DNA from: an uncultured Bacilli bacterium
GTDB lineage: Bacteria > Bacillota_I > Bacilli_A > RF39 > UBA660
Reading direction: 5' to 3'
NCBI GenBank assembly: GCA_947586825.1
Contig: CANPXU010000002.1
Coordinates: 5,317 to 69,316, forward strand
Length of the DNA: 64,000 bases
A program made the position numbers. The first letter of the stretch is position 1; each line of letters opens with the position of its first letter. Positions 12,001 through 30,000 of the stretch are shown here, in pieces.

Positions 12001-15000
12001 CTTGATCTTTCTTACCTTCATTTATACCCTTAACAAGTTCATCTATAGCTTCAGGTTGATCGCCCGAAGGTTTAAATTTAGATACTAACTCAAACATGAG
12101 GACCTCCTAACTAAACATAATTTCAACAATACATTTTAACATTAATTACTAAACAAAACAAGGAAAGCTATATAAAGTTTCCTTGTTATTATTTTTCCTA
12201 TTTTATATTTTTTTAAACAATAAAGTCTTATTATAAAAATAATATATATGTAAATACAATTAAAGTTATAAAAAGAGAAATGCTACATAAAATTATACCT
12301 GATAAATTAAATCCACTTTTATGTTGCTTTAAACTAATTGTTGCAAACACTAAACCTAATATTGATGGTGTTAAAGAAAATAAAGTAAAACCAATATCAA
12401 AGGCTACAACCTCTAACATAGTATAGTCATACCCTAAACTACTTGTTAAATCCAAGTTACCAACAGAAAGTAAGGTTAACAAAGTCCATATTGCAGCTAC
12501 AATACCTAGAACCATACTCGCAATTCCCAATCCTTGGCCAGAAACTTTTACTTTATTGTTATTATTAACATTCTCTTTATGAATTAATACGCCACAATTT
12601 AAACAAACATCAGCATTTTCTTCAACTGGATGTCCACAATTCATACAATATTTTGCCATATACTTACTCCTTCATTTATACGCAAACTATTCAATACTAA
12701 ATTCTGCAGCTGTATAATATCTAGCTTTTTCAAGTTCATAAAAATCCATAACAATTCGATATTCACCCTTTGGAAGCTCACCATACCATGGCCACCACTC
12801 AATATTAAAAAGCAAAGCGTCTCTTGGATCAATTGATTTTAAACTTAGTGCAATCATCATCTCACCATCCATTTTTAATTTATACCACTTATCGTCTTGT
12901 TTCTTTTCTATTTTAAAATCATTACCTAAATAATAAGTAATATCACTATTATTAGTTAGAGTTAAACTTAAACCCTTTGCAGTAACGCTTTTTTCATCAA
13001 TAGTTAATGTAAAAATATCACTAATTTCTTTAATATTTGTTTCGCCATCAAGTGTCCCTGGTACAAATTTTTCTTTTTTAAGTGAGCATCCTGTAATAGT
13101 TAAAGTCAAAAGTATTAATAAAATAATCTTTTTCATTTTTCCTCCTAGCTTAATTATAACATATATGTAGGAAGTTAAAAATCTTTATCAATTTTTTATC
13201 TGTTTAATTATGAAGAAAAATCTTCTTTTATTGTCATATAGTCAAACTTTTTCTTGCTATAAATTGAATACACTATTACTGACAACATAAGACTAACTAT
13301 GGGGATTAAAAGTAAATAATCATTAACTTTACAATAAAAGTAATTATCAATTAACGTAACGCTCAAGAAAAACAAACCATCTATAATCAGACATATAATC
13401 GAAGTTAAAAATAATATTGATAAATAACACAACCATCTAGGAAGTCCAAGTATAGAGTAAAGCGATATATCTTTTTCAATATGAATTAAATAATTAATAT
13501 TCATAATTATAATAAAAATAATTACTAAAAAAATTATAATGTAATTTACTAAAAATAATAATGTCATTGATAAATTACCAAAACTTTTATCCGAAGCAGA
13601 AAGAATATTACGTTCGATTTCTTCAAAATATTCATCATATTTTTCTATAAAATCATCTATATAATCAACGTTTTTAAAAGTTATAGTAATATACTCTTCA
13701 TCGCTTATATCACAACTTTCTATAATATCAGTATTATTGTTTATTATTTGTTCAATATCGGTATTTGCTTTAAATAAAACTGTTCTATAAATTTGTTGAT
13801 TGCTCTGAATATCTTTCTTATTAGCTATATTGTTATAAGTTATATTCATAATAATCGCAAGAAGCAAACCAAGAATAATAATTATTATATTCTTAAATAA
13901 ATATTTAGTATCTATTAATCCTTTTAAAAAAACTATCATGCTAAAATATCCCTTATTTCTTCTTTCATATAATTTCTTACAATTCTTATAGAAACTATAA
14001 AAGTGATAAATAAAGATATAACAACAAATAATGCCATTATTAAATAAGATATCTTAATATCAAATGTTGCAAAATTAACTATTTTTCTAGCAAAATATTG
14101 GATGACATACTTAATAGCTAAAACGAAAAAGCTAGAAATTGCATATGAAATTAAAAGCAGTTCGAAAACCCCATAGTATATAATAAACTGGATTGTAGAA
14201 TAAGAATAGCCCAAGGCTCTATACAATGCAATATTTTTTCTTTTACTTTTAATGTAATTCACTACATAAATATATAAAGTAATAGTTGAGATTATAAAAA
14301 AAGCCACTGAAAGTATGTATACAGAGTTAACAATTGAATCCATAAAAAAAATTTCGATGTTGGGTACAGAATAATCTATTTTATTTTCATTTAAAATATT
14401 TGTGATTTTTGAGACATTTCTATAATCATCTACAAAAATAGTCATTGCTTTATAATATGCATCATCATAATTATAAGGTTTCCAATCTTCATAAAGCTTT
14501 TTTACAAAATCTCTCGAACCATAACAACCATTATAATTATAGTTAAGCGTTGGATCAAATAGCCCAACAATTTTAACTTTGTATGTGTATTCTTTAATTT
14601 CATCCTTGGAAATTTTTTGATAATTTTTAATCTCTATTTCTTTATTTAAATATTTTCCCATATCTAATAAATCTTCTACATATTTATCGTCATATGCCCC
14701 AAAGGCCAAACGATTTGGGCAAATAATTTCATCTTCATTGCTTATAGAATGCCCTTTAATAACACTGGGAACAAAACTATCTATATTTTGAAAAATTCCT
14801 AATGTTAAATTTTTATTTTGTTCAGGCCAATATACAGCTGCATAGTATTCGTTCATATCTTTAATAATGGTCACCACATGTGCTTCATCTTGCAAATTTA
14901 GCTTTAATACATCCTCTTTTTGATCTTCGCGTATAATTTGAATCATCTTGACACTATAACTATTATTCATTAAAAAATTAGAAGCCTCATCATAAGTTTT

Positions 15001-27000: not shown

Positions 27001-30000
27001 TTAATGGTGAACTAATAAAGTTAAGAAGCTTATTTTCGTTAAAGGTTTCTAAATAGTATTCAAATTTATCATCATCAGAGCGATATCTTTCAAAGCTACT
27101 AATATAATCTATAATTTTATTGCTACTATATATAATTTTTGAATCTTCACTTATACTTGTTAATTCAGAATCATAAATTGGCATATAAGTATTATTTTTA
27201 ATTTCGTATTTAATTTCTTTATTTTTAAATTTTTCTAAATCATAAGGCAAATAATATATTCCCGTTATTTTAAAAGTATAGTCTCCTGCATTAATTAAGT
27301 TGTCAATGATATCTTCAAATGTTTTAGGATTAAATTCACTGCCATCATCATAAACTATGCCGTAATGAATTATAGTTTCAGCCATAAAATTAGATATCAT
27401 TATTTCATTAGAATTTTTAGGAAAAGATCCTATATATTTTAAATTAAAACTTTGTTCATCAATTACTGTAAGGGAATCAATGCGCTGATAATATCCTCCA
27501 TTTACTATATCATAGCTTTTAGAAATTGGAGGTATGGACTTATATATATTGCCATAAGCGAATTGTACAAATCCAGAGTTTATATTATTTATAATATAAT
27601 TAATATTATACTTAACTTTTTGATTGTTTAAATAATTCTCTAATTCTACAATTTCCTCCTCAGTAAAAAAATCAGAAACGGAATATAATTGGTTTTGCTT
27701 TGATAAAGACATATAAGTATCTTTATAGTTCTTAGCAACTGCTATAGCTTCACTTTTTGATAAATTATTTTTGGTCAAATTAATAGAAAATAAAGTTATT
27801 TCTACTAAAAAAAATATTATTACGCTTATAATAATGTTTTTAAAATTAAAGCTTGAAAATAATAACTTACTAGTTTTAAATATATTTAAATTCAATGTTT
27901 CTAAGGGCATATTTTCATAAGACGAATTATAGTTATTATGTAACATAGTTATTTCGATATTGCTATTCTTTATTGCTAAAATGCCATCTGAATATTCCAT
28001 AGCCATAGCTTCATCATGCGTAGATACTATAACAAGAGCATTTTTACTCAAATTTTTCAAAATTTGCCAAACATTATCACTATTATTTTCATCAAGATTT
28101 CCAGTTGGCTCATCTGCAAGGATAATTGGTGAGTTATTGATTAAAGCTCTAGCTATAGCAACTCTTTTCTTTTGGCCACCTGATAAATATTTAGCCTTTC
28201 TTTTCTTAATGGAACTTATTCCTAATTTATCAAGGATTAAATGTAATTTATTCGAATTTAATTTTTTGCCATTATAATTTAATAAAATATTATTAGCAAC
28301 ACTTATATTTTCTATTAAATTACTGCTTTGAAAAACAAAGCCTACCATTTTTTTTCGATAGTGCGCAAGTTCTATATCAGTTAGATTTCCTAAATTTTTT
28401 CCAAAACTAATGACTTCACCTGAAGTTGGCTTATCAATACCACCAATCATATTAAGGAGAGTTGTTTTTCCACTACCACTTCTTCCAAGTATTGTAAATA
28501 ATCCTTTGTCAGGTAATGAAAAATTCACGTTAGTAAAAATAATATTATTTTCATCATATTTTTTGAATAAATTTTTAACTTCTAACATATATGCTCCTAT
28601 ATAATAGCAATATTTTTATAATCATATTTTGCTATTGGTGTAATAATCCCCAAAAATGCCATGACCATAATTAATAATAAATTTTTCATTCTTACCGACA
28701 TTTCAACAATAAGTGTACATTAAATATATATTTAGAAAAAGAGCAAATCAGGCTCTAATCTAATGTTTTATTAGAACCTGATTTGCTCATTACATTAATT
28801 CATACAAATAATTCCAAAAATATTGTATTTTTTCATCAGCTTTATCACATTTTTGAATTGTACATGATACACTATCATTTTCATATGTAAAGCTGTACAA
28901 AATATTATTACCATCATAAGCGTTATATACTAGGGATTTTCCGAATATATAGAATGTCCAATCTTCTATAATCTTTTTGTCTTTTGTTATTATTAAGCTA
29001 ATTTCTCCTGTTTTTGGAATATAATAAGAGGATATATACTCACCTTGAATTTCTTTTTCATATTTATATATATTATTTTCTGTTTTATATATCTTCTGGA
29101 TATTATTTATTATTGGAGTTAAATCACTAGGAATATTTTTCTCTTTTTTATTTTCTTGCATTATTATTTCATTTGCTTTATTAAAAATTAAGTTATTATT
29201 AATATAATCTTGAGTAAAATATAATTTTATTATTTCTGTTTTTCCACTTTCATATTCAATTAATAAGTAAATATTGTCCTCTATATCTTTAAAATAATTT
29301 GTTTTGAAATATTCGTTCTCTCCATATTTTTGACTAATAATTAAATTGGTATTATCGGTGCTTATAATTAAATTATTTATCTTTTTGTAATAAAGAGTAA
29401 TTTGTTTTATTTTTTCATTATTGCTAGTGTTTATTTGATTAATGCTAAAATAAATTTTACCTTTAGTAAATATATAAATTCCATTATCAATATAAGCATA
29501 TTTTCCGTCACCAGTTATTGTATAAATTTTTATAGATTTATACGAATTAAAGAAATAATATATACCAAATAATGAAGTTATAATAAGTATTGTGGTTATC
29601 AAAACTATTATTATTTTCTTTCTCTTATTGGTAACATTATATAAATTAGCAGATACTTCATTTATTTTTTCTTCATTTTGCTTACTTAATTTTTCACCAT
29701 AAAGAATTTCATTTACAGATACATCAAATAAAGTACTTAATTTTAGTAGCATTTCATGGCTTGGAAGAGTTACTCCTCGTTCCCATTTACTAATAGAAAC
29801 CCTTTCAATTCCTAAAAGATTCCCAAGTTTTTCTTGTGATAAATTTCTACCTTTTCTTAATTCGCAAATAAATTTTCCTATCTTATTTGAATTAATCAAA
29901 AATGCACACCTCGATTTCCCAATGTTTCCATCAAATATTAAACTATAATATCATAACTAGGTCAAATTATTAATTAATTACTATCAATTCATTAATATTT

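Follow-up and report, generated by a model that had tools for sequence, protein, structure and literature searches.

Predicted single-pass transmembrane XRE regulators of gut Bacilli: a triplicated array with three ABC transporter designs, and a near-constant secreted partner in related loci

Results

Three regulator paralogues and their family

The DNA examined here (the window) is a 64-kb stretch of contig CANPXU010000002.1, assembly GCA_947586825.1, from an uncultured Bacilli bacterium; all of its genes lie on the minus strand and its G+C content is 23–33%. It carries three full-length, co-directional paralogues of a predicted membrane-anchored regulator with an XRE-type helix-turn-helix (HTH): RegA (17292–18374), RegB (21697–22809) and RegC (28790–29899). 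Each precedes another design of ATP-binding cassette (ABC) transporter, i.e., a LolD-like ATPase with FtsX permeases (cassette A), an ATPase with two polytopic permeases (cassette B), and two ATPase-permease fusions (cassette C). An earlier note, made from the sequence alone, had described three co-directional units led by paralogous regulators, and every open reading frame (ORF) that it named was found in place on the minus strand. The transmembrane (TM), signal-peptide, promoter and terminator calls given below were made with simple scans or by reading the sequence, and all structures are predictions.

RegA (360 aa, GTG start) is the copy at the syntenic site beside uvrB; RegB has 370 aa, for which alignment preferred the ATG at 22809 over 22845; and RegC (369 aa, TTG start) has its HTH at residues 8–69, its TM segment at about 96–118, and a two-domain ectodomain with the cysteines of a CxxxxC motif at 346 and 351. 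Pfam matched an N-terminal HTH_3 or HTH_19 in the three proteins (HTH_3 E values of 5e-9 to 6e-15, above the gathering score), and neither Pfam nor NCBIfam matched any domain in them besides the HTH. A hydropathy scan found a single TM segment per regulator (residues ~96–120) with a K/R cluster before it, and a C-terminal ectodomain of about 250 aa follows in each, for a predicted N-in/C-out topology. Full-length identity among the three is 27–33%, and the CxxxxC near the C-terminus is invariant. BLASTP of the ectodomains aligned RegB with RegC (31% over 249 aa, E 3e-29), RegA with RegB (29% over 144 aa, E 7e-7) and RegA with RegC (28% over 130 aa, E 4e-7), and a hidden Markov model (HMM) of the ectodomain matched just these three ORFs in the whole window; therefore, the triplication is real and not a chance resemblance.

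The regulators belong to a large family. A word-indexed search with RegC returned 315 relatives, many of full length (350–390 aa) and none of them named, and an exhaustive search with a profile of the TM segment plus ectodomain returned 907 clusters at 50% identity, 663 of them with E≤1e-10. Nearly all of the matched clusters are 350–375 aa long, with the ectodomain starting at residue ~85–98, a uniformity which argues that the ectodomain is practically always joined to the HTH-TM architecture. Aligning 30 homologues showed that the canonical Cro/C1 HTH residues are kept (invariant Q22, and SKWE at 37–40), that a membrane-proximal stretch, YYFINxYxSIxVYTI, is conserved, and that the C-terminal CxxxxC is invariant. 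In the AlphaFold2 model of the ectodomain (mean pLDDT 85) a disordered linker joins two beta-rich domains, the first resembling a beta-sandwich and the second an alpha/beta domain with a terminal helix; when the TM-plus-ectodomain construct was modelled, a helix at its residues 2–28 supported the TM region. Foldseek found nothing specific for the ectodomain model (LolA at E 3e-4, with a TM-score of 0.13 by query and 0.19 by target), and a profile search of the PDB gave no significant match, so that the homology and structure searches of the ectodomains (Foldseek, Pfam, PDB) led to no characterised family. Judged from their sequences, the regulators are a real and uncharacterised membrane-anchored XRE family of about 900 clusters with uniform architecture.

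The conserved gene downstream of the regulator

We examined the gene neighbourhoods of the family in 39 fetched loci, whose ORFs were mapped and then annotated by phmmer and by HMMs made from the window proteins; after leaving out the window's own species and collapsing the regulators at 90% identity, 24 loci with downstream sequence were obtained. A genome scan with a six-sequence ectodomain alignment gave 14 loci and a metagenome scan gave five, and all 19 were on gut or unclassified contigs of Bacilli, from metagenome-assembled genomes (MAGs) or metagenomes; the genome-scan loci were labelled as MAGs of uncultured Bacilli, Erysipelotrichaceae or "Mollicutes", and two as "uncultured bacterium".

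Directly downstream of RegA the window encodes a predicted secreted protein of 238 aa, sec238 (16461–17177, minus strand), with a signal peptide ending in ANA|K, and the partner conserved across the regulator family is this protein: a sec238 homologue lay directly downstream of the regulator in 20 of the 24 non-redundant loci. When all downstream genes were clustered all-against-all, the sec238 family was the sole widely common one (23 loci including the window), 23 of its 24 members were at position +1, and the clustering showed no third conserved component. The association was reciprocal, since looking upstream of sec238 homologues identified an HTH_3 protein of 354–394 aa directly upstream in both cases (2/2). 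The closest relatives of RegC, P0003 (63% identity) and P0006 (50%), are likewise followed by a sec238 homologue, with no transporter.

Co-directional membrane ABC genes were found downstream in about 6 of the 19 loci having at least 4 kb of downstream sequence. These were of the cassette A type in L006, L008 and L009 (the last without sec238), of the cassette C type in L030 and L033 (two fusions of 600–655 aa), and of the cassette B type in L035 (an ATPase plus polytopic proteins); where present, the ABC modules usually lay downstream of the sec238 gene. The linkage between regulator and ABC genes, which the earlier note had made the mark of the system, therefore recurs in relatives with all three designs, but only in a minority of the loci. 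Because sec238 follows the regulator so much more regularly than ABC genes do, we take the ABC coupling to be a later add-on.

The surrounding genes place the pair in conserved chromosomal contexts. Five loci (L011, L013, L022, L029 and L036) share the order ftsE-ftsX-pcsB, regulator-sec238, uvrB. The pair is immediately upstream of uvrB in these relatives, and in the window uvrB (10145–12097, minus strand) follows cassette A, which argues that cassette A is the syntenic copy and that B and C are additions. Many other pairs stand alone amid housekeeping or cell-wall genes, with neighbours that include murB; mur ligases, mraY and femAB; ftsW; an LtaS-like sulfatase; an LCP protein; and tig and lon. 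The cell-wall genes among these suggest an envelope role, although this evidence is anecdotal.

Several loci deserve separate mention. In L022 and L036 uvrA is 2–3 kb downstream of uvrB; in the window a uvrA-like ORF (63069–63857) lies upstream of uvrB at a distance of about 51 kb, and this region has undergone rearrangement or expansion. Within L024 (1–7835), genes for PrgI, a VirB4/TraG-like ATPase and DUF3846 directly precede the pair formed by sec238 and the nearest relative of RegC that is not identical to it (63%); with such conjugation-type genes beside it, the regulator-sec238 pair can therefore move on mobile elements. L009 has at least two full-length regulator copies as well as a shorter HTH-TM protein of 244 aa. 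L019 (10900–15100) and L020 are two versions of the same regulator locus, distinguished by a roughly 4-kb insert (Arc, Zot, Rep_OBD) beside a tyrosine recombinase; the insert has the look of an integrated element, either filamentous-phage-like or plasmid-like.

Properties of the secreted partner

A word-indexed search with sec238 returned 826 relatives of about 240–250 aa without a Pfam domain; among the 120 matches listed, only three had a source name, and all three were called "hypothetical protein". Members of the family have a signal peptide in which the Ala at -1 is invariant, and they lack an anchor motif. The predicted fold is a small helical N-terminal part followed by an immunoglobulin-like (Ig-like) beta-sandwich, whose top structural matches were Ig domains of adhesins and pilins, and a PDB sequence search with the sec238 profile found no relative. 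Invariant polar motifs (SYQHA, GYGxV, YDxMxGV) run through the family, and the alignment has invariant Y42, D120, S165, Y192-Q193-H194 and Y228-D229, along with near-invariant K93 and N160; these residues suggest a binding or catalytic site, or else a pilin-type Lys-Asn isopeptide bond. We considered whether sec238 mimics the sensor ectodomain and rejected this, since hhalign of the ectodomain against sec238 shows no relation.

The spacing between regulator and sec238 genes is 56–111 nt, the two genes never overlap, and in most loci examined (L006–L037) a hairpin with a T-run comes right after the regulator stop codon. RegA and RegC both have one: the hairpin behind RegA (17250–17281, minus strand) was read from the sequence, and that directly behind RegC (28740–28756, minus strand) is a terminator-like element called by consensus scan only. 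The hairpins of L006–L037 are short and GC-containing, and leave 30–40 nt before the sec238 ribosome-binding site; each could be a leaky terminator tuning the ratio of regulator to partner, or could overlap a promoter of the partner gene. Between the RegA hairpin and the 238-aa gene, we could read a palindrome, TCTAC-N5-GTAGA, and two AAATGTAG repeats.

Genes of cassette A

Behind sec238, and on the same strand like all genes that follow here, lies sec139 (15846–16265), which encodes a protein of 139 aa with a signal-peptide-like N-terminus; among the fetched loci it had a homologue in L008 only. Neither secreted protein had a Pfam match, and a PDB sequence search with sec139 gave nothing significant. 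Between these two genes and the ABC genes of the cassette there is a 16-bp hairpin (15798–15837). The ABC genes start with a LolD/MacB-like ATPase of 219 aa (15113–15772; Pfam ABC_tran), whose top NCBIfam model was LolD at 239 bits, below the cut-off of 308. The FtsX-type permease of 394 aa that follows (13936–15120; Pfam FtsX) has four TM segments and an extracytoplasmic loop of about 220 aa, with homologues in L006, L008 and L009. Next is a membrane protein of 243 aa (13208–13939) with 4–5 TM segments and no Pfam match, which has a homologue in L008; compared with the 394-aa permease it gave a weak match over the FtsX motif (E 0.001), and it is probably a second, small FtsX-like permease subunit. 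The composition given in the earlier note was borne out for the LolD-type ATPase, the 394-aa permease and the two secreted proteins, and its "FtsX-domain subunit" of 243 aa is plausible on this weak match. The cassette continues with a Big_14 lipoprotein of 149 aa (12687–13136), preceded by its own promoter-like box, TGTTATAAT, and possibly includes a zinc-ribbon protein of 142 aa with three TM segments (12231–12659), whose membership is uncertain, ahead of uvrB.

Genes of cassettes B and C

Cassette B lacks a hairpin behind its regulator, and its leading gene starts 59 nt after RegB. This gene encodes a polytopic membrane protein of 307 aa (20714–21637, ~7 TM), and is followed by another of 236 aa (20007–20717, ~6 TM), an ABC ATPase of 210 aa (19378–20010; Pfam ABC_tran), and a protein of 301 aa (18486–19391) with an N-terminal anchor and a predicted extracytoplasmic location. 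Neither polytopic protein had a Pfam or NCBIfam match, and the 301-aa protein had no family match and nothing significant in a PDB sequence search; the ATPase matched best the lantibiotic-protection ABC ATPase TIGR03740, at 168 bits against a cut-off of 310. All members assigned to cassette B beforehand, namely an ATPase, two polytopic permeases and a membrane-anchored extracytoplasmic protein, were thus recovered.

The hairpin behind RegC suggests that this regulator is a transcription unit separate from its ABC genes. Cassette C begins with an ATPase-FtsX fusion of 819 aa (26129–28588; Pfam ABC_tran and FtsX), having 4–5 TM segments and a loop of about 440 aa, for which the top NCBIfam model was a lactococcin-972-type ABC protein (175 bits, below the cut-off); a second ATPase-permease fusion of 755 aa (23865–26132; Pfam ABC_tran only) has four TM segments and a MacB-like topology. 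The two are 43% identical, but this identity is confined to the nucleotide-binding domain (NBD), and both have their large loop between TM1 and a C-terminal TM cluster. Two tandem fusions and two lipoproteins had been described here and are present; Pfam FtsX was matched in the 819-aa protein only. L002 (4582–6501), which comes from a different metagenome sample, has an orthologue of the 755-aa protein that was called at 639 aa and is followed by a 380-nt gap, a possible truncation or pseudogene that would point to strain-level variation in cassette C.

The lipoproteins of cassette C have 153 aa (23348–23809; Pfam Big_14 and LPAM_1, with a lipobox) and 146 aa (22904–23344; Pfam Big_14, lipobox FITGC). 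A PDB sequence search with a Big_14 lipoprotein gave nothing significant, and the literature on Big_14/PF20251 and on BreG offered nothing usable. At the DNA level the 149-aa Big_14 gene of cassette A and the 153-aa gene of cassette C are 79–85% identical (12687–13207 compared with 23348–23864, and the 153-aa gene compared with 12726–13147), and upstream of both there is a common promoter-like box, TATGTTATAATTAAG; the gene seems to have been duplicated recently, together with its own promoter. Other XRE-TM proteins of these bacteria have different ectodomains (P0085, P0098), and some are HTH-TM-Big_14 fusions; Big_14 is therefore found in two settings, as the ectodomain of a regulator and as a free lipoprotein beside ABC genes.

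Surroundings of the array

The window DNA matches ENA metagenome contigs and a MAG from rabbit gut, L007 (uncultured Bacilli), which is near-identical to the window through cassettes A and B. Upstream of RegB, L007 has a 238-aa XRE-TM protein (227–943) and two Big_14 genes, and the contig begins there. Directly upstream of RegC in the window is an ORF of 2497 aa (30086–37579), after which there is a strong terminator-like hairpin (30061–30087); its orthologue of 2472 aa in L001, a matching metagenome contig, has a Peptidase_M26_C match (IgA-protease type). Farther upstream are a DAO-Rieske fusion protein (38884–40428), and a histidine kinase (40997–42166) with an OmpR-type response regulator (42099–42788) adjoining a Peptidase_C39-like protein (42827–43681). 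Rfam and tRNA scans across the 64 kb gave no matches.

Discussion

The explanation that we favour, and hold tentatively, is that the regulators are single-pass transmembrane one-component regulators whose core partner is the secreted Ig-like protein, and that ABC modules were recruited secondarily. The ancestral unit would be a module of two genes, one for the regulator and, behind it, one for a secreted Ig-like protein of the sec238 family (about 240 aa). The regulator would stay membrane-bound, bind operators in the short intergenic regions beside its own gene, and set downstream expression upon an extracytoplasmic cue, which probably has to do with the cell envelope. Certain lineages would have gained ABC modules of three designs behind this two-gene unit; in the window the unit would have been triplicated, with copies B and C losing the sec238 gene and driving ABC genes directly. 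The ABC modules and the Big_14 lipoproteins would then most likely be outputs for envelope defence or export.

Several observations weigh against this explanation. In four loci (L009, L012, L019 and L039) another gene is directly downstream of the regulator, and when the downstream proteins of L019 and L039 (244 and 248 aa) were tried as sec238 relatives, no similarity was detectable. The neighbourhood sample is small (24 loci) and was fetched partly via one membrane-proximal pattern, which biases it to one part of the family. A shared operator, sought by eye across loci in the regulator-sec238 and upstream intergenic regions, was not found, and the palindromes seen were locus-specific only. 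The domain architecture, the paralogy, the size and uniformity of the family, the counts of gene adjacency and the synteny are observed, and the N-in/C-out topology, DNA binding at the membrane, the set of controlled genes and the nature of the signal are predicted.

The close tie between the two genes could also mean that sec238 is an extracytoplasmic partner of the ectodomain, the two forming a joint ligand-binding unit with a regulon that is located elsewhere or takes in the ABC genes. The adjacency is strict, reciprocal and ancient, neither partner has another recognisable function, and the same operon logic defines the co-component systems (PMC9214523; Table 1 of PMC10269533). As with ToxR/ToxS, TcpP/TcpH and VtrA/VtrC, a single-pass tethered regulator would have the gene for its extracytoplasmic partner immediately downstream, in a fast-evolving cassette (PMC9214523, PMC10269533). 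In those systems, however, the DNA-binding domain is a winged helix, whereas here it is a Cro/C1-type HTH_3 and there is no Trans_reg_C match; the ectodomain of the present regulators is much larger and the hosts are monoderm Bacilli. A partner of the VtrC type is membrane-anchored and lipocalin-like and pairs with the periplasmic part of its regulator as a heterodimer, but sec238 has a cleavable-type signal peptide and no anchor, so that it would not stay near the regulator in a monoderm cell, and its predicted fold is an Ig-like sandwich like those of pilin and adhesin domains. A hairpin and T-run between the genes in most loci, in place of overlapping genes, and the complete ectodomains that RegB and RegC retain without a cognate sec238 gene also argue against a joint sensor, which we consider unlikely. 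Somewhat less probable again, in our estimate, is a new Gram-positive signalling loop in which the ectodomain reads secreted sec238, whether free, wall-bound or degraded, as a signal of autocrine, envelope-integrity or population type; the XRE domain, tethered at the membrane, would turn this reading into transcription, and the circuit would have been wired repeatedly to different ABC exporters.

The earlier note had proposed a detoxification array sensing envelope stress or antimicrobial peptides, by analogy with BcrR of Enterococcus faecalis, a one-component transmembrane bacitracin sensor that controls bcrABD and has four TM helices with no large ectodomain. In its stronger form this would make the regulators sensors of antimicrobial peptides or cell-wall antibiotics that switch on the adjacent ABC genes for detoxification or immunity, with the secreted protein incidental. 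The likeness to BcrR is an N-terminal XRE-type HTH on a membrane protein whose gene is directly upstream of an ABC operon; all three window regulators precede ABC genes, each of the three designs recurs beside family members elsewhere, and the ATPases match best the LolD/MacB, lantibiotic-protection and lactococcin-972-type families. RegC, apparently an independent unit upstream of its transporter, resembles BcrR in this respect; the gene for BcrR is likewise transcribed on its own, immediately ahead of the transporter operon (PMC3968067). Yet every NCBIfam ABC match was under its curated cut-off, ABC genes accompany about 6 of 19 informative loci compared with sec238 in 20 of 24, and the nearest relatives of RegC have sec238 and no transporter, so that the conserved neighbour of the family is a secreted protein and not a transporter. 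The note had itself set these regulators apart from BcrR, and rightly, since the similarity extends over the HTH only, and one TM segment with a folded ectodomain of about 250 aa replaces the polytopic membrane domain; tblastn of RegC against plasmids (including 159 Enterococcus records, from which bcrR itself was not singled out) covered 25% of RegC at most, in the HTH only. Nothing in the analysis points to antimicrobial peptides as the signal, and we regard a BcrR-like function as doubtful, at about the same low level of belief as the joint sensor.

Could the locus instead produce a secreted toxin or bacteriocin? Here sec238 and sec139 would be antibacterial or host-directed, the ABC and Big_14 proteins would serve immunity or export, and the regulator would control production. 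Predicted Sec-dependent secretion of beta-rich proteins beside ABC genes with bacteriocin-associated best matches is consistent with this, as is the one pair on the conjugative-element-like contig L024. However, most pairs have no ABC or immunity candidate and, unlike accessory toxin loci, sit in conserved housekeeping synteny (ftsEX-pcsB...uvrB; tig...lon); Pfam, PADLOC and PDB sequence searches matched no toxin or bacteriocin family, the top structural matches of sec238 are adhesin and pilin Ig domains, and with respect to lactococcin 972 systems, TIGR03608 scored 160–192 bits against a cut-off of 255 and the 139-aa and 238-aa proteins had no Pfam match. We find a toxin locus improbable. RodZ uses an HTH-like domain for contacts with MreB, and the present proteins, which have a RodZ-like layout of XRE-type HTH, TM helix and extracytoplasmic domain, might similarly be membrane scaffolds, or anti-sigma-like tethers in cell-wall synthesis, and not transcription factors. 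The frequent position of the pair beside ftsEX-pcsB and the cell-wall genes listed above would suit such a role, but HTH_25 and RodZ_C (DUF4115) were absent from the Pfam matches of the regulators at E≤0.01, their best matches were to the classical repressors RstR and DicA, and there are several paralogues per genome, each tied to different downstream genes; among the explanations weighed this one appears the most improbable. A known defence system was also tried as a candidate and rejected, PADLOC having given HTH-level matches only (RmrA, control proteins).

The ABC modules show partial likeness to known transporters. Cassettes A and C recall MacB, LolCDE and FtsEX (type VII) in their 4-TM permeases with a large extracytoplasmic loop and in NBDs that score best against the LolD, MacB and lactococcin-972-type families, although below the cut-offs; Pfam FtsX is present in the 394-aa and 819-aa proteins and absent from the 755-aa and 243-aa proteins, and the topology fits all four. 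Cassette B resembles the LanFEG/ABC-2 immunity transporters in combining an ATPase with two 6–7-TM proteins, but its ATPase misses the family cut-off. MacB_PCD and ABC2_membrane were not among the Pfam matches of the cassette ABC proteins, and the partners in the cassettes are Big_14 lipoproteins and not known adaptor or immunity proteins.

Transmembrane transcription regulators number about 50,000, the commonest form being an HTH with a single TM pass, and in about 57% no sensor domain can be recognised (PMC10269533). The present regulators fall within the definition of this class, a DNA-binding domain with at least one TM region, and like that 57% they have no other recognisable domain; what sets them apart is that they form one uniform subfamily, of about 900 clusters, that has an ectodomain of its own and a gene partner that looks obligate, both of them undescribed. 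The claim that the array corresponds to no described system consequently stands at the level of the family but not of the class, in which single-pass HTH regulators without a sensor domain are already common (PMC10269533).

The analysis defines a large and uniform regulator subfamily in poorly studied, mostly uncultured gut Bacilli, and identifies its near-constant partner, a family of secreted proteins that counts more than 800 relatives and has no annotation. In doing so it corrects the attractive but over-specific reading of the locus as a detoxification array sensing antimicrobial peptides, and the tandem array shows a sensor module that has been duplicated and attached to different ABC exporters. 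To our knowledge, transmembrane one-component regulators are abundant, and for very few of them has the signal or a partner been established; the regulator and sec238 are offered here as a two-protein system by which monoderm bacteria may read the state of their envelope. If sec238 were a co-sensor, co-component signalling would reach beyond the enteric Proteobacteria; and were the signalling loop true, monoderm bacteria would have in it an XRE-type counterpart to the ToxR/ToxS-type co-component systems, built from two undescribed families.

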